64,000 nt of DNA from Acutalibacteraceae bacterium (GTDB taxonomy: Bacteria > Bacillota > Clostridia > Oscillospirales > Acutalibacteraceae), in assembly GCA_045578985.1 (NCBI GenBank), contig JAZNLH010000040.1:990-64989 (forward strand), read 5' to 3'. The position numbers and the translations under genes were made by a program. This document shows, piece by piece, positions 3,053 through 43,208 of this stretch (position 1 is the first letter of the stretch; each line of letters starts with the position of its first letter). Under the pieces are notes generated by a model. It saw nothing but the letters and a program-made list of their open reading frames with translations, searched no databases and had not been told where the DNA came from.

Positions 3053-4207
3053 ATGTCAAACATTCTTGATGCTTTCAAAGAAAAGCAAACTGAAGAAAGA
3101 GTTTACACCGGTGAAAAAATAAAAGTCGGCATTATCGGTTGTGGCTGGATTGCAGAAGCACATCTTAAAAGTTACCTTAAATGTGACGACGTTGAAGTTG
3201 TTGCATTTGCTGATATTGTTCCCGGTAAAGCTGAAGCATTCGCAAAGGCTAACGGCATTGACGTTGAAAAAGTAAACTTCTATTTAAGCGATAAAGAACT
3301 TATTGATAACGAAAAAGATCTTGATGCTGTTTCAATTTGTACATACAACCGTCAGCATGCTCCTTGTGCAATTTATGCACTTGACCATGGTGTTCACGTT
3401 CTTCTTGAAAAACCCATGTGCGTTACTCTTGAAGAAGCAATTGAAATCTGCAAAGCTGAAAAACGCAGCGGTAAAATCCTTTCAATCGGTTTCCAGCCTC
3501 GTTTTGACGAGAATATGAAAATGGTTAAAAAGATTTGCGAAAGTGGCGTGCTTGGCAAAATTTATTACATCCAGACCGGTGGCGGCAGAAGAATGGGTAT
3601 CCCCACTCCTTTCGGCACATCCTTCATTCAGGAAGATACAGCCGGACTTGGTGCATTAGGCGATATCGGTTGTTATTCACTTGATATGGTTCTTAATGCT
3701 ATCGGTTATCCGAAGCCCCTTACAGTTACAGGCTTTAAAGCAGGTCTTTTCGGCAAAAAGCCTGAATACCTTCAGAAACCCGAATATACAGAGGTTTTCG
3801 GTGTTGATGACTTCGCAGCCGCATACGTTCGTCTTGAAGGTGATATCGTTCTTGACTTCCGTATTGCATGGGCAATGCATTGCGATACTCCCGGTGATAC
3901 AATCATCATGGGTACAGAAGGCGGTCTTAGAATTCCTTCCACAGAATGCTGGAATGGTTCAATCGGCGGTCCTATGACAATTTACCACAACATCGCCGGT
4001 GAATGTGTTGAAACAGTTATCCCTGAAATGGATAACGACGGCGATAACTTCGATAAGAAAATCCGTTCATTTATCGATGCTATCGAGTTCAACCTTCCTT
4101 CACCCGTACCTTCAAGCCAGATTATCTACAACCAGGCAATTATTGACGGTATTGCTCGTTCTTCCGATGCAGGCAAAGAAGTTGAAATTGTAATTCCTGA
4201 ATTCTAA
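3053..4207 (+). CDS. Gfo/Idh/MocA family NAD(P)-dependent oxidoreductase
   Basis: N-terminal Rossmann motif KVGIIGCGWIAEAH and the EKP motif (VLLEKPM). GGAGG SD lies before the ATG. 384 aa. Confidence 0.85.
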   Translation: MSNILDAFKEKQTEERVYTGEKIKVGIIGCGWIAEAHLKSYLKCDDVEVVAFADIVPGKAEAFAKANGIDVEKVNFYLSDKELIDNEKDLDAVSICTYNRQHAPCAIYALDHGVHVLLEKPMCVTLEEAIEICKAEKRSGKILSIGFQPRFDENMKMVKKICESGVLGKIYYIQTGGGRRMGIPTPFGTSFIQEDTAGLGALGDIGCYSLDMVLNAIGYPKPLTVTGFKAGLFGKKPEYLQKPEYTEVFGVDDFAAAYVRLEGDIVLDFRIAWAMHCDTPGDTIIMGTEGGLRIPSTECWNGSIGGPMTIYHNIAGECVETVIPEMDNDGDNFDKKIRSFIDAIEFNLPSPVPSSQIIYNQAIIDGIARSSDAGKEVEIVIPEF

Positions 4208-5473: not shown

Positions 5474-6166
5474 TTAATTTTTCATTCCTTTGAGTGCTGT
5501 CATAACAGCTTCTTCAGACATATCACAAGACATTTCATAAATAGGTATATCAGAAAGAATTCTGTTCAGTGTTTCAAGCATATCTTTCATAAGCTCCTTG
5601 TCATAAGGGCGAACAGTTTGATCCATAAATAGTTTCAACGCCTTTATTCCGGGAATTCTTTTAATTTTATTTTCGCCACGTGACAAGAAAGTAATACCCG
5701 CAATCGGTACACCTTCATTAACACTTTCATCCGTTTTACCACTCCAGGGTGTACCGTAAGCATAAAACACTCCATCAACCAGTCTTATGGCAGGTTTATC
5801 ATCGTTAATAATACGAGCACCGGGCAAATATTTTAACCATAAATGTGTATGTGTAGACTTTCCTGTTCCTGAACGCGCCGAAAACAAATACGCCTTGCCC
5901 TCATATTCAACACAAGATGCGTGTAACATTACGCCATTAAATTTTGCAAGTCTTTCATAAAAATGAGCACCACTCCAAAGATATTCTGCCTCACCTTGAG
6001 TTAAGTTAAGATGCTCCGCTTGCCTGTCTATATAATACTGTTCAGAAACACAAAAAACAATATCTGCATCTTCATCGCCATCATATTTGTAGGGTTCAAC
6101 ACGAGATAAAAGCAAATCGTTATGAATATTCAGTTCAACAATTAAATCAGCTGTTTTAATCTTCAA
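5474..6166 (-). CDS. HPr-kinase-like P-loop protein (HprK C-terminal-domain fold; substrate unknown)
   Basis: 230-aa ORF with a TTG start and a strong AGGAG SD 7 nt upstream. Walker-A-like SARSGTGKSTH sits mid-protein after HASCVEYEGKAYLF, the layout of HprK-related kinases. There is no N-terminal HprK domain. Confidence 0.5.
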   Translation of the reverse strand: MKIKTADLIVELNIHNDLLLSRVEPYKYDGDEDADIVFCVSEQYYIDRQAEHLNLTQGEAEYLWSGAHFYERLAKFNGVMLHASCVEYEGKAYLFSARSGTGKSTHTHLWLKYLPGARIINDDKPAIRLVDGVFYAYGTPWSGKTDESVNEGVPIAGITFLSRGENKIKRIPGIKALKLFMDQTVRPYDKELMKDMLETLNRILSDIPIYEMSCDMSEEAVMTALKGMKN

Positions 6167-6198
6167 AGTTATTCTCCTATCTTTACAACGAATATATT

Positions 6199-6589
6199 AA
6201 CGCGAAGCCTTATCATCCCTGTTTCATCTGCGATGAAATAGGGAGGGGGACCGCGTCAGCGGTGGTGGGTAGTTCTCTTGCTGTTTTTCTTCAGTAAAAG
6301 TAACGCGAAGCCTTATCATCCCTGTTTCATCTGCGATGAAATAGGGAGGGGGACCGCGTCAGCGGTGGTGGGTAGTTCTCTTGCTGTTTTTCTTCAGTAA
6401 AAGTAACGCGAAGCCTATCATCCCTGTTTCATCTGCGATGAAATAGGGAGGGGGACCGCGTAAGCGGTGGTGGGTAGTTCTCTTGCTGTTTTTCTTCAGT
6501 AAAAGTAACGCGAAGCCTATCATCCCTGTTTCATCTGCGATGAAATAGGGAGGGGACCGCGTCAGCGGTGGTGGGTAGTTCTTTTGCGG
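6199..6589 (+). repeat. Four head-to-tail copies of a ~103-bp structured repeat (unit starts 6199, 6302, 6405, 6507)
   Basis: Unit: AACGCGAAGCCTTATCATCCCTGTTTCATCTGCGATGAAATAGGGAGGGGGACCGCGTCAGCGGTGGTGGGTAGTTCTCTTGCTGTTTTTCTTCAGTAAAAGT. Periods are 103/103/102 bp with only a few substitutions or indels. There are no spacers. The array abuts the DUF559 stop codon. Confidence 0.95.
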
Positions 6590-6991
6590 TTAGTCTCCTA
6601 TGAAAGTAACCTCAACATCAACGCCCAATTCTTTCGCTCTTTCTATGCAACTGTAATAAATGGTAGTTTCTGTGTTTTTTATCGCTTTATTTATGTCGCT
6701 GTTATAAAATCGTAATAATTTATAACCTTCATTTTGTAAATATTCATGACGACGTTTTTCGTATTTCAAGTTATCTTCAAGATAATGTTGAACGCCGTCT
6801 ATTTCAATAACAAGTTTCAACTTAGGACAATAAAAGTCAACTATATATGAGCCGATTATCTTTTGCCTTATAAATCTTGGTTTTATTCTTTTAAGATACA
6901 GATGCCATAATTTATTTTCTTCTTCGGTTGGTTCTTTGCGCATCTCTCTGGCTCTGTCTACTAATATGTGGGTTATACCTTGATTTTTCAT
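6590..6991 (-). CDS. DUF559 (Vsr/restriction-endonuclease-like fold) domain protein
   Basis: 133 aa. Family pattern ARE-x-RK-x-PT-x-x-E-x-x-LW...F-x-RQ...Y-I-x-DF-x-C...L-x-IE-x-DG-x-x-H. The sequence here reads AREMRKEPTEEENKLWHLYL...FIRQKIIGSYIVDFYCPKLKLVIEIDGVQH. Confidence 0.85.
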   Translation of the reverse strand: MKNQGITHILVDRAREMRKEPTEEENKLWHLYLKRIKPRFIRQKIIGSYIVDFYCPKLKLVIEIDGVQHYLEDNLKYEKRRHEYLQNEGYKLLRFYNSDINKAIKNTETTIYYSCIERAKELGVDVEVTFIGD

Positions 6992-7019
6992 TGTTTTTTC
7001 TTCTCTCTGGATGGTGGGT

Positions 7020-7108
7020 AACAGATAAAGAACTACCCACCACCACGCTTGCGCGCGGTCCCCCTCCCTATTTCATCGCAGATGAAACAGGGATGATAGG
7101 CTTCGCTT
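7020..7108 (-). repeat. Diverged fifth copy of the 103-bp unit, inverted relative to the array, 29 bp upstream of the DUF559 ATG
   Basis: The plus strand reads AACAGATAAAGAACTACCCACCACCACGCTTGCGCGCGGTCCCCCTCCCTATTTCATCGCAGATGAAACAGGGATGATAGGCTTCGCTTT. This is the reverse complement of the unit with a 4-nt expansion in the second hairpin. An extra hairpin, GGTGGGTA-N13-TACCCACC, lies at 7013-7041. Confidence 0.9.
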
Positions 7109-7323
7109 TATTTTTACTTGTTTTCTTATTTCAATTCATCGTAAACGACAAACTCAAATAAAAAAACAATTAAAATTAACACATTACGATTTTTGCATTT
7201 TATATCACACAAGCCGAGGTTTCCCTCGGCTTGCGGTTTTTTAGTTGATTAAAAGATGTCTTTCACCCTCCGCCCCTGCGAACAGGAGCGGAGTTTCAAG
7301 TAACTTAACCGACTAAGTTGGGA

Positions 7324-40907: not shown

Positions 40908-43208
40908 TTAGTATCCTCCGCTTATATAGGTCTCTCCGTCTTTCATTTCTATACCCTTGACCGCCATCATTTCCGATACCGTAACAAGTTGGTATCCGTT
41001 TTCTACAAGCCACGGAATCAGAATATCGCTGGCATCTGCAGTAGATTCATATAAATCGTGCATTAGTACAATAGAACCATCTCTCACCTGACTTTGCACT
41101 TTTTCGGTAACAGATTTTGCGTTGCGGTATTTCCAATCCAATGTATCGATAGACCAAAAAATGAGAGGCATATCTACATTTTCTTTTGTCAGATCATTCA
41201 CGGCACCACCGGGCGCTCTGGCAATAACCGGTGCTATTCCGGTTAAATTTTCTATTGAAGAGTTTGTTTGAATAATCTCCTGTTTAATTTCTTCTGCCGT
41301 TGATTTTGCAAGGTTTTTATGATGATACGAATGATTTCCTATTTCGCAATCCTGCCGTACTGCACGTTTTATACAATCGCTATATGTATTTACTCTTTCA
41401 CCAACAACAAAGAATGTGGCACGTCCGTTATAATGGGCGAGTTTATCAAGTATTCTGTTTGTTATATCGTTACTCGGTCCGTCATCGTAAGTAAGCGCAA
41501 CCATAGGTTTATTAGGATCTATACCGTACGCAGATGAAACAAATGAATCAACCACATCGCCATCCGGAAAGAGAACACGAACCACATAATAATTCTTTTC
41601 TCCGTAAACCGGGCTACCGTCTATACATTGTGTGGTAGAAGAATCCAGCGTGCCAATTTTAACCCAATCAGCGTTATTATCGGTTTTTCTGAAAAGTTCA
41701 TAACCGTTGCAATCAGCAATTTGACTCCAATGAAGCATTATTCCCTGCGGACAAAGAGAGGCTTTAATACCTAACGACGGAATATGGCGTATCGTTACTC
41801 CGTTAATATCGAAACTGCCTGAAACACCATTTTTCACACATCTTACGGTATACACATAGGAATTATCTTTCTGAACATTGTGGTCGGTAATATAATTCGT
41901 ATCACTGGAATAAACCCTTTTGATTTCTTTCCATTCACTTTCGCCATGATTTTTTCTGTAAACTATATAACCTGTTGCAGAATTTGATTTTTCCCACTGT
42001 AACTGCACGCCATCGAACAAATTTATTGTAGCAAGGTTAAGTGGTTTTTTTACAACATCGCAATATATGTTTTTAGTCGCATCCGAAAGCATATCAGCTT
42101 TTAATCCGACTGCTCTAATCGTATACGAGTATCTTTTGCCATCCTCAACATTCATATCCGAATATGTAAAAGAGGACGTCTGTCCGATTAATTCCACGTC
42201 GGCATTTTCACTTCTGTATATATTATAACTCTGTGCACCCTGTACTTCATTCCACGAAAGCAAAATACCGTCATTATAATTTTCTGCCGAAAATTTTCCG
42301 GGCACATTCAAAAACTGTATGCTAACACCGGTTTTATTGTATCCGCTGTATATTTTTTTGATTATCGATCTTATTGTATATGTATAAACATTTCCGCTTT
42401 TTACATCCTTATCAGTAAATGTATCTATGTTTGCGGAAACTACTTTTAGTTTTACCCAGTGGTTTTCATTGTTGACTTTTCTGTAAATAACAAAATTATC
42501 AGCATACTTAGGTTTCTGCCACTTAACAGTAACTGCATCGTCAATATTTTTTACACTGATTATTTCGGGGGTTCCTACAAAAGGTTGCGAGGTTTTATAT
42601 TCGTGAGAACTTCTGTAATCACCATTATAAGCCGTAACGGTATATGTATACGCCACCGTTTCTTTTACATTTTCATCTTCATAATGACAATTGCTATCGC
42701 CTTTTACATCTGAAACGAGCTCTATACCGGCAGCATTTTTTCTGTAAATATAGTAACCCTCTGCACCTTGGGATTTCTGCCAATCCAGTTCAATACAACA
42801 ATCACCGAAAGCAATTTTTTCAATAGTTGGCTGTAACAGTCTGACTATAAATTTTCTTTCACTTAACCGGCTAAAAAACTTTCCGTCGTATGCCCTCACG
42901 GAGTACTCATATTTTTTGCCACTTTCGGCAGTTTTATCGATGTAAAAAAGCTTGTCCGCACCTTCAATTCTGGCTATTTCCACAGGATGCCTTTGGTTAT
43001 TCAACCTTCTGTACACCTTGTAACCCTGTGCTTGTTGTGATTCTTCCCAAGTTATATTTACACCGTCAAATGTATTGATGACTGCTACATTCTCAGGCAT
43101 TTCGGGTCCTATACCAAATCCGCCTGCATATGTAAACGTTGTCAGACAAACCATAATCAGGCTCACAATAGCAAGTGTCAGTATTGTTGTCCTGACGGAT
43201 CTTTTCAT
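40908..43208 (-). CDS. Secreted polysaccharide deacetylase (NodB domain) preceded by six FN3-like ~90-aa repeats
   Basis: Signal/anchor ...TFTYAGG. The repeats are of the same type as in 22980-24596 (GYKVYRR, GYYIYRK, NFVIYRK, SYNIYRS, GYIVYRK, GYELFRK). NodB motifs are LTYDDGP and GNHSYHH. Confidence 0.8.
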   Translation of the reverse strand: MKRSVRTTILTLAIVSLIMVCLTTFTYAGGFGIGPEMPENVAVINTFDGVNITWEESQQAQGYKVYRRLNNQRHPVEIARIEGADKLFYIDKTAESGKKYEYSVRAYDGKFFSRLSERKFIVRLLQPTIEKIAFGDCCIELDWQKSQGAEGYYIYRKNAAGIELVSDVKGDSNCHYEDENVKETVAYTYTVTAYNGDYRSSHEYKTSQPFVGTPEIISVKNIDDAVTVKWQKPKYADNFVIYRKVNNENHWVKLKVVSANIDTFTDKDVKSGNVYTYTIRSIIKKIYSGYNKTGVSIQFLNVPGKFSAENYNDGILLSWNEVQGAQSYNIYRSENADVELIGQTSSFTYSDMNVEDGKRYSYTIRAVGLKADMLSDATKNIYCDVVKKPLNLATINLFDGVQLQWEKSNSATGYIVYRKNHGESEWKEIKRVYSSDTNYITDHNVQKDNSYVYTVRCVKNGVSGSFDINGVTIRHIPSLGIKASLCPQGIMLHWSQIADCNGYELFRKTDNNADWVKIGTLDSSTTQCIDGSPVYGEKNYYVVRVLFPDGDVVDSFVSSAYGIDPNKPMVALTYDDGPSNDITNRILDKLAHYNGRATFFVVGERVNTYSDCIKRAVRQDCEIGNHSYHHKNLAKSTAEEIKQEIIQTNSSIENLTGIAPVIARAPGGAVNDLTKENVDMPLIFWSIDTLDWKYRNAKSVTEKVQSQVRDGSIVLMHDLYESTADASDILIPWLVENGYQLVTVSEMMAVKGIEMKDGETYISGGY

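Follow-up and report, generated by a model that had tools for sequence, protein, structure and literature searches.

A predicted DUF559 nuclease gene carried between inward-facing BoxC/TM-like repeats in an Acutalibacteraceae genome and its relatives

First described in the 1990s, BoxC/TM repeats still have no known mechanism and no known partner protein. The TM motif, which folds into an intrastrand triplex in vitro, combines a C-rich and a G-rich block with a mirror-image G/T block (Holder et al. 2015, PMC4666352); the repeats are intergenic and multicopy, they mark rearrangement-prone loci, and no mobility genes were found adjacent to them (PMC4666352). Another system that comes close is that of the REPIN-RAYT elements, or REPtrons (Nunvar 2010; Bertels & Rainey 2011, PMC3116915, PMC3337134). 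Here we describe a locus comparable to both, from a 64,000-nucleotide stretch of an Acutalibacteraceae bacterium (GenBank assembly GCA_045578985.1, contig JAZNLH010000040.1, positions 990 to 64,989 of the forward strand), which we call the window and whose numbering we use unless another contig is named. A gene of the DUF559 family stands there between inverted copies of a repeat, the arms, with a tandem array of arms on its 3' side. An earlier, sequence-only reading of this stretch knew of no described element with this organisation, but the arm appears to belong to a published repeat class, the BoxC/PIT/TM intrastrand-triplex motifs.

DUF559 is a very large family of unknown function. No publication linking it to BoxC/TM-type repeats was found, and the pairing of a DUF559 gene with a BoxC/triplex-type repeat is apparently unpublished. 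The locus and a genus of 98 genomes form an unusually clean data set for this pairing, with a cassette whose ends are defined, about 1,300 repeat copies whose hairpins covary, mirror covariation in favour of a DNA triplex-type fold, and both derivatives and whole genomes that lack the gene. All genomes in the comparison, which takes in 98 species genomes of the genus, are metagenome-assembled genomes (MAGs); the window's own genome is 85% complete in 50 contigs.

The DUF559 cassette and its tandem array

The segment 6199-7106 is one copy of a cassette of about 0.6 kb in which a DUF559 gene of subfamily A (DUF559A; 6590-6991, minus strand, 133 amino acids, PF04480, E = 1.7e-28) fits precisely between two arms of about 85-105 nt, both complete and inward-facing. 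On the 3' side of the gene Tandem Repeats Finder reports a single array at 6198-6591 with a period of 102, 3.9 copies and 97% matches. Its plus-strand units were delimited with the same program, with blastn and with a covariance model of the arm, R1 (81 positions, 28 pairs). Unit 1 (6199-6301; 69.6 bits with R1 at 6202-6279) is identical to unit 2 (6302-6404; blastn 100%). Unit 3 (6405-6506) has one T fewer (AAGCC-TATC) and the loop GTAA, not GTCA, in the second of the arm's two hairpins, and unit 4 (6507 to about 6608) has one G fewer and a diverged tail that runs over the DUF559 gene's stop codon and the codons just before it. Unit 4 is the cassette's original 3' arm. The core of the upstream arm lies at 7026-7106 on the minus strand, inverted relative to the array (77.5 bits with R1; 88% blastn identity to unit 1), and its tail (6992-7025, minus strand) serves as the DUF559 leader, running to the ATG at 6991 with a purine-rich ribosome-binding site, AGAGAGAAGAA. 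This leader tail is kept in relatives (TCTCTTATCTnTAyCCACCAyyAAGAGAGAAGAA..ATG), and within it TTACCCACC is able to pair with the arm's GGTGGGTAG to give a third hairpin (DNA fold z = -4.5). Between the end of the array and the TTG start of an HPr-kinase-like gene (5474-6166) there are 33 bp. The sequence-only reading had described four head-to-tail units of about 103 bp with the differences given here, the overlap of the fourth with the DUF559 stop codon, a diverged fifth copy inverted upstream, and a gene flanked in this way by inverted repeats; all of this was borne out.

Read on the gene strand, units 1-3 contain ...VTFTEEKQ..., the DUF559A C-terminus of relatives (ITFTEEKQ*, VAFTEGKQ*), and the live gene's present end, in unit 4, is VTFIGD*. 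Because units 1-3 each encode the C-terminus of relatives, the 103-bp unit is the arm together with the gene's last eight codons, and the array of four arose by recent, local tandem duplication of the 3' arm with those codons. The duplication took place in situ, by unequal recombination or slippage, with the proximal copy diverging later; a special functional array is not supported. In other species, too, arrays of two to three arms adjoin DUF559A, at its upstream or its downstream end and in one case as 3 + 3. The orthologous site of one species (G056) has an array as well, but with a different hairpin 1, which points to concerted evolution or repeated amplification.

The same geometry recurs well beyond the window. 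With subfamily A defined as at least 60% identity to the window DUF559, DUF559A is present in 29 of the 98 genus genomes, in one to five copies including fragments. Related loci came from Acutalibacteraceae and Oscillospiraceae MAGs from gut and rumen, and among 30 DUF559A loci from different species arms lie on both sides in 25, always inward-facing and with the gene on either strand; four more are one-armed (one of them at a contig end) and one is armless. In a second, independent set drawn from named public MAGs, a bracketing inverted repeat of at least 34 bits was found at 23/23 subfamily-A loci. When DUF559 loci of all kinds are taken together (78 loci), 67% have a bracketing inverted repeat of at least 30 bits, compared with 2.4% of 212 neighbouring control open reading frames (ORFs). 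The DUF559A gene starts about 8 nt past the upstream arm's tail and ends inside the downstream arm's tail. DUF559 genes in Ruminococcus, other Clostridia and Synergistaceae are flanked by arms built to the same plan (hairpin, GGGGGACC, hairpin, GGTGG...), and one DUF559 gene in the Burkholderiales lies between looser GC-rich hairpin repeats. The cassette proposed from the window is thus a recurrent unit, and DUF559 homologues elsewhere do have similar flanks.

Some further features adjoin the cassette or its relatives. Two ORFs that cross the repeats, at 6359-6523 (minus strand, 54 amino acids) and 6928-7161 (plus strand, 77 amino acids; ...RGPPPYFIADETGMIGFA...), are translation artefacts of the arms, and such arm-derived peptides may be what gene callers append to DUF559 N-termini in public records. 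At 7210-7233 (plus strand) a terminator-like hairpin with a T-run points at the cassette from the DUF559-antisense direction; it is conserved in relatives immediately after precursor-peptide genes. Of 120 DUF559 matches in the genus, drawn from subfamilies A and B, 37 (in 29 genomes) are no more than 2.5 kb from an HPr-kinase-like gene or one of its paralogues, on either the upstream or the downstream side; the chance expectation is about 0.6. Possible reasons for this proximity are a preferred target, a variable island common to both genes, and a functional connection with the phosphorylated-peptide clusters. The window's genome has a second DUF559 gene, of B type and 47% identical to the first (C47:41272-41619, minus strand), whose flanks (41150-41760) differ from the arms described here. 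Its own arm is of another triplex style without GGGGGACC (CCTTCCTTC-GAAGGAAGG-hairpin CACGTGATATC..-GAAAGGTTC), with only a partial partner opposite.

Two hairpins and a triplex-type core in the arm

The arm has a conserved G-rich core, and its parts come in the order pyrimidine block, hairpin 1 (variable), purine block, GGGACC, hairpin 2 (variable) and mirror-image G/T block. The frame GCGAAGCC-TATCAT-CCCTG...ATAGGGAGGGGGACC...GGTGGTGGGTAGTTC is near-invariant across copies, and the two hairpins that it encloses vary yet remain paired. In unit 1 (all on the plus strand) hairpin 1 (CCCTGTTTCATC-TGC-GATGAAATAGGG; helix 3 of the model, also given by the DNA fold) occupies 6217-6243 and has a conserved G.T wobble at CCCTG/TAGGG. 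The purine block, block 2 (ATAGGGAGG, 6238-6246), lies directly 5' of GGGACC and is followed by hairpin 2 (CCGC-GTCA-GCGG, 6251-6262; helix 4) and by the G/T block, block 3 (GGTGGGTAG, 6264-6272), which under the purine-motif triplex code is a mirror image of block 2 in 7 of its 9 positions.

The pairing was assessed over 116 distinct arms. In an alignment that had been fitted to the model, 94.0% of cells are paired, compared with 81.2% after shuffling and 45-60% with the partners slid, and 24 of the 28 pairs show changes on both sides; none of 500 shuffles reached the observed values. Hairpin 1 is 97.5% paired with both-side changes in eight of its nine pairs, and hairpin 2 is 97.7% paired with both-side changes in seven of eight. 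G.T pairs are confined to the forward strand.

Blocks 2 and 3, of 9 nt each, covary as mirror images. Scored by the purine-motif triplex code (G.G, A.A, A.T), block 2 reversed fits block 3 at 4.92 of 7 variable positions on average over 52 distinct variants from all fetched loci, against a shuffled-partner expectation of 3.61 +/- 0.13, and none of 2000 shuffles reached the observed value. Variants that change together include GGAGGGATA with GGTGGGTAG, GGGAGGAAA with GGGTGGTAC, GGAGAGAAG with GGAGAGTTC, and GGAAGGAGG with GGAAGGTCC. The pyrimidine block CATCCCTGT matches ATAGGGAGG at 7 of 9 positions; there is a single G.T wobble and a single A/G mismatch, and the hairpin 1 model covers only the CCCT/AGGG part of this pairing; full pyrimidine/purine blocks occur in relatives such as loci L156 and L194. 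Because the purine and G/T blocks covary in this way, the arm is best described as a putative derived BoxC/TM-type motif, with hairpin 2 standing in loop 2 and a variable stem grown in loop 1. The ITxF search definition allows loops of 1-6 nt between blocks (PMC4666352), and the arm falls outside it on both counts, with an extra variable stem in loop 1 and a hairpin of 12-19 nt or inserts of 80-175 nt in loop 2.

Other accounts of the conserved parts were considered. RNAalifold proposes a three-way junction with a closing stem (GAAGCC.TATCAT / GTGGTGGGTAGTTC), on which we do not rely: although 82-92% paired, this stem hardly varies and has many G.U pairs, and the conservation of block 3 is better explained by its mirror (triplex-type) relation. 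At its foot hairpin 1 has a conserved T.G (ATAGG opposite CCTGT) that resembles the NTWGG site of Vsr; this T.G is present in 89 of 116 arms of the window's subfamily and replaced by Watson-Crick pairs in other subfamilies, and we treat a Vsr substrate there as a lead only. Permissive scans of the window region and eight other loci gave no Rfam family for the arm, the only matches being sub-threshold ones to Gut-1 on a different, neighbouring repeat. They lie at C10:1993-2069 and about 3400-3480 (L009 1394-1470 and 2803-2879) with 38-39 bits against a gathering threshold of 50, on a GCGATAT-rich hairpin repeat that adjoins a solo arm.

Loop 2 of some copies contains recurrent inserts (C5:17433-17574, C35:76492-76638, C42:131877-132017, C22:89916-90190 and L075 711-963) that look like nested elements. 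One type has 82-83 nt and begins CCGTTCTTTGAT...; another, of 175 nt, is common to C22 of the window's genome and the arm upstream of DUF559A in G065.

A dispersed repeat and a patchy gene

With blastn and the covariance model we found 18 arms in the window's own genome, all of them intergenic and several at contig ends. Five are at the window locus; inverted doublets lie on C5, C35, C25 and C42, a truncated doublet on C44, and solo arms on C10 (twice), C32 and C22, and inverted doublets account for 5 of the 10 loci. None of the nine other arm loci in this genome has a DUF559 gene. Across the genus, R1 finds arms in 63 of 98 genomes, with a highest per-genome count of at least 47 and at least about 1,330 matches overall; R1 was built from one arm variant, and other variants are under-counted. 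No arm was found by blastn in 16 other genera of the order, and the cassette has no plasmid DNA match. Arms are often sited between convergent genes and take either orientation relative to their neighbours. The repeat is not private to the gene, most copies being gene-less solos, doublets or arrays. Two possibilities left standing by the sequence-only reading, a unit that occurs nowhere else and a unit always linked to DUF559, are thereby both set aside: nine other loci of the same genome and most relatives carry the unit, and mostly without the gene.

The orthologous locus has the order two precursor-peptide genes, slot X, kinase, slot Y and a LytR-family gene, and occupancy of the slots differs between species (this being a species-level comparison). 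Slot X holds DUF559A with arms in G000, G065, G007 and G023, with identical orientation of the gene in all four; it holds arms only in G047, G056 and G016, DUF559B with diverged arms in G009, and a RAYT-type Y1 transposase with its own repetitive extragenic palindromic (REP) hairpins in G054. Slot Y is empty, or contains an arm doublet with DUF559B, or, in G016, a collapsed element made up of an arm, an ATG and the other arm's end (L076). Elsewhere (L080) a gene-less arm still has the leader tail. The collapsed forms and this leader tail indicate that full cassettes gave rise by deletion to at least some of the gene-less copies. The RAYT-like ORF of G054 (L078, about 1000-1490, in the slot that corresponds to window 6167-7190; HIHLL ... 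YYDH motifs) is flanked by REP-type hairpins GGGTCAGGCAAGCCTGACCC and GTAGGGGCTAGGCTCGCCTAGCCC, and no DUF559 cassette is present there.

Within genomes, paralogous cassettes are 73-89.5% identical over about 270-750 bp. Because the similarity of the best pairs spans arm, gene and arm, the ends of paralogous cassettes coincide with arm ends.

At first sight gene and repeat go together: at least five arms are present in 29/29 DUF559A genomes (median 34) and in 21 of 69 others (Fisher p = 1e-11), the latter made up of 13 of 30 genomes with B-type genes only and 8 of 39 without any DUF559. On a tree of kinase orthologues, arms behave as a clade trait with 9 changes, and DUF559A is patchy within the arm-bearing clade with 17 changes. 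Five genomes with 8-36 arms have no DUF559, one of them 95% complete in 20 contigs; the absence of the gene is weakened by MAG incompleteness, since repeat-flanked genes are often on short unbinned contigs and many homologues are on contigs below 1 kb. The arms of these DUF559-less genomes pair as well as others (93.7%, with hairpins at 97.7% and 95.6%, versus 94.0% elsewhere), and two arm-bearing clades without DUF559 span speciation events. The repeats do not need the gene, which favours a nuclease that parasitises the repeat over a nuclease that makes it.

Other repeats accompany the arms. A separate module often abuts their outer end (in the window's genome at C5:17225-17272, C35:76195-76262 and C47:41085-41130) and consists of a tract of 7-nt repeats (AATGCAA/AATGCGT/GGAATTA/GCAAGTG), a CGGGGC-loop-GCCG hairpin and ATTATAGATAAAGT. 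Further hairpin modules, for example CCGTAAGG-TACGCACCTGTGCGTA-CCGC and CTTACTTGCGGGACGAATAGATTCGTCCC, follow many arm tails and build mosaics of up to about 0.5 kb, such as those at C44:3950-4090, C25:1010-1150, C32:36590-36760 and C42:131560-131870.

The nuclease, its repeats and known systems

Among solved structures, the window protein is nearest by sequence to the DUF559 protein 3HRL (E = 1.5e-12) and to I-Bth0305I (catalytic domain; 3R3P, E = 0.006), a Vsr-like (EDxHD) homing endonuclease that is encoded in a group I intron. An AlphaFold2 model (pLDDT 87.9) searched with Foldseek gave matches to 3HRL, 3R3P and PvuRts1I/AbaSI, with a homing-endonuclease-type fold at probability 1.0 and TM-scores of 0.53-0.77, and a weaker match to Vsr (1VSR, TM-score 0.43). 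The protein is accordingly modelled as a Vsr/I-Bth0305I-like PD-(D/E)xK nuclease fold. Residues D52, E63, D65 and H69 are invariant among 40 homologues, and the median ratio of nonsynonymous to synonymous substitution (dN/dS) among 18 orthologues and paralogues, 0.13, indicates that DUF559A is under purifying selection; some copies have stop codons. No C5-cytosine methyltransferase (PF00145) was found in the window's own assembly, 85% complete, and no Y1 transposase (PF01797) in its genome. As the sequence-only reading had it, no transposase or integrase was found in the neighbourhood. A phage search gave three weak protein matches only, among 50,697 records, and an exact-protein look-up of the adjoining kinase for strain-level variants found none on record.

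We tentatively favour the reading that DUF559A is a homing-type selfish nuclease gene resident in repeats that it recognises. The protein would recognise the arm, folded or as duplex, or a doublet of arms, and would nick or cut gene-less copies, into which the gene would be copied by break repair; copying into cut doublets would place the gene always in mid-doublet. Breaks at arms would also favour unequal repair, giving arrays, internal deletions and locus rearrangements, and the repeats themselves would be a landing pad independent of the gene. We prefer the repeat as target over the repeat as product because arms do well where the gene is missing, because of the two it is the gene that is patchy, and because a homing endonuclease is one of its nearest characterised relatives; a patchy gene with stop-codon copies fits the life cycle of homing genes. 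The recurrent architecture, the remnants of cassettes in gene-less copies, the varying occupancy of the orthologous slots and the invariant nuclease residues also speak for homing. The selfish or homing-type element suggested by the sequence-only reading thus survives as the best reading available, with the protein resembling I-Bth0305I, but the idea that the gene travels inside repeats of its own does not, the repeat being shared. Several results weigh against homing. When the kinase tree, a quick single-gene tree with one misplaced row (G023), is used for 10 independent contrasts, about four run in the same direction, none in the opposite one and six show no difference (median p = 0.125); in view of these contrasts we downgrade the raw co-occurrence, and regard the association of gene and repeat as mostly shared ancestry. 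Paralogous cassettes, only 73-89.5% identical, look old, with nothing to suggest recent homing. The outer flanks of 80 arms showed neither a target-site duplication, as had been noted for the window, nor a defined cut site; these flanks are A/T-rich, or carry another module (heptamer tract and CGGGGC hairpin), or the preceding unit's tail (GTAAAAGTAAC). The gene could also be a passenger.

A REPIN/RAYT-like arrangement, in which arms would be multiplied, homogenised or maintained by the DUF559 nuclease, on which gene-less arms would depend as non-autonomous elements, would account for a gene flanked by inverted copies of a genome-wide repeat and for the frequency of inverted doublets, as in REPtrons. 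The arm counts of the 29 DUF559A genomes would also agree with it, as would the variants of blocks 2 and 3, which track DUF559 subclades, and the true RAYT with its own REPs in the equivalent slot of a relative, which suggests an equivalent niche. We nevertheless consider it unlikely: five genomes have 8-36 equally well paired arms and no DUF559, two gene-less clades span speciation events, hairpins vary among copies within a genome with no sign of master copying, the phylogenetically controlled association is not significant, and covariation of arm variant with protein subclade is expected from linkage alone. To about the same degree we doubt that there is no functional link, with the arms as host structural or regulatory repeats (BoxC/REP-like recombination hot spots, terminators or stabilisers) and DUF559 as a Vsr-like repair gene or trapped passenger. 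Arms do persist with their structure kept when the gene is absent, all are intergenic and many lie between convergent genes, TM loci are published as rearrangement-prone (PMC4666352), and a Caulobacter DUF559 protein acts as a Vsr-like enzyme (PMC12907096). Such independence sits poorly with bracketing that is specific to the DUF559 family across phyla (67% versus 2.4% of neighbouring ORFs) and with an ORF that fits exactly between arm tails, and for the Vsr-type version the assembly, at 85% completeness, has no PF00145 enzyme to supply the usual substrate.

An RNA role for the arms is very unlikely, be it in the DUF559 mRNA (as a cis-regulatory leader or 3' element), as a small RNA or as a type III-style repeat-array antitoxin. 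The hairpins covary strongly, G.U/G.T is tolerated on the forward strand only, and the upstream arm's forward strand is part of the 5' leader, where it could form an alternative hairpin beside the ribosome-binding site. Against this, there is no Rfam family match and no promoter-like site ahead of the arms, which are mostly gene-less and stand in both orientations to their neighbours; the array's forward strand is antisense to both flanking genes; and arrays are exceptional, not the rule. The mirror covariation of blocks 2 and 3 fits a purine-motif triplex, and such triplexes are stated not to form in RNA (Holder 2015, PMC4666352), which favours a DNA-level structure and disfavours the cis-RNA partner that the sequence-only reading had also entertained. 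A type III toxin-antitoxin reading of the array was discarded outright, as the array's forward strand is antisense to the gene and downstream of it, and most cassettes are single-armed. Least credible of all is an invertible switch in which the arms mediate programmed inversion of the DUF559 segment. In print DUF559 figures as a table row among predicted inversion targets, where it is enriched (odds ratio 14.3; PMC9881135), and the arms are inverted repeats of about 85 bp, but the flanking inverted repeats explain that enrichment simply, no recombinase gene was found nearby, and the gene has equal orientation in four species at the orthologous site.

Like miniature inverted-repeat transposable elements (MITEs) and their parent insertion sequences, the cassette has terminal inverted repeats and gene-less internal-deletion derivatives (L076, L080); it differs in that no recognised transposase class, target-site duplication or near-identical copies were found. 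For a Vsr enzyme of very-short-patch repair, the C5-cytosine methyltransferase that it works with (PF00145) is missing from the assembly (85% complete), and the fold similarity to 1VSR reaches a TM-score of only 0.43. With Vsr-like (EDxHD) homing endonucleases such as I-Bth0305I (3R3P), DUF559A has in common the fold, a small self-contained gene, patchy distribution and some degenerate copies, whereas DUF559A is intergenic and chromosomal, not within an intron, intein or phage genome, and its presumed target is a dispersed repeat and not a unique conserved gene.

The likeness to REPIN-RAYT systems lies in a small gene flanked by inverted hairpin repeats that are dispersed as inverted doublets, in an apparently long-lived and largely vertical history within a clade, and in the genuine RAYT that occupies the same slot in a relative (L078). 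Here, however, the enzyme is a predicted PD-(D/E)xK Vsr-like nuclease and not a Y1 HUH transposase, the arms are about four times longer and have a triplex-type core, and the gene is patchy, in 0-5 copies, with repeats that persist without it and show no decay.

The arms also resemble the BoxC/PIT/TM repeats (TMECO; Bergler 1992, Hoyne 2000, Holder 2015), which are likewise multicopy, intergenic and in either orientation, have pyrimidine, purine and mirror G/T(A) blocks, and lie at rearrangement-prone loci with no transposase adjacent; in the arms described here the third block follows the G.G / A.A / A.T code. The differences are that loop 1 carries a variable stem of 6-8 bp, that loop 2 consists of GGGACC, hairpin 2 (12-19 nt, or inserts of up to 175 nt) and a T, that the pyrimidine-purine pairing is imperfect (7 of 9, with one G.T wobble and one mismatch), and that a DUF559 gene stands between two arms, whereas the published repeats have no associated protein. 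What the locus adds is a test of mirror covariation, a genus-wide census with phylogenetic control, genomes that lack the gene, a RAYT in the same slot and an array explained as duplication of a gene end. It is possible, though doubtful, that DUF559 proteins are the missing partner enzymes of BoxC/TM repeats, structure-specific nucleases that home into or propagate them across many phyla. The nature of the repeat and the role of DUF559 both become directly testable at the bench. Were DUF559 the TM partner, this would explain why TM loci are rearrangement hot spots and would place beside REPIN-RAYT a second, mechanistically unrelated system of a repeat and its resident enzyme.

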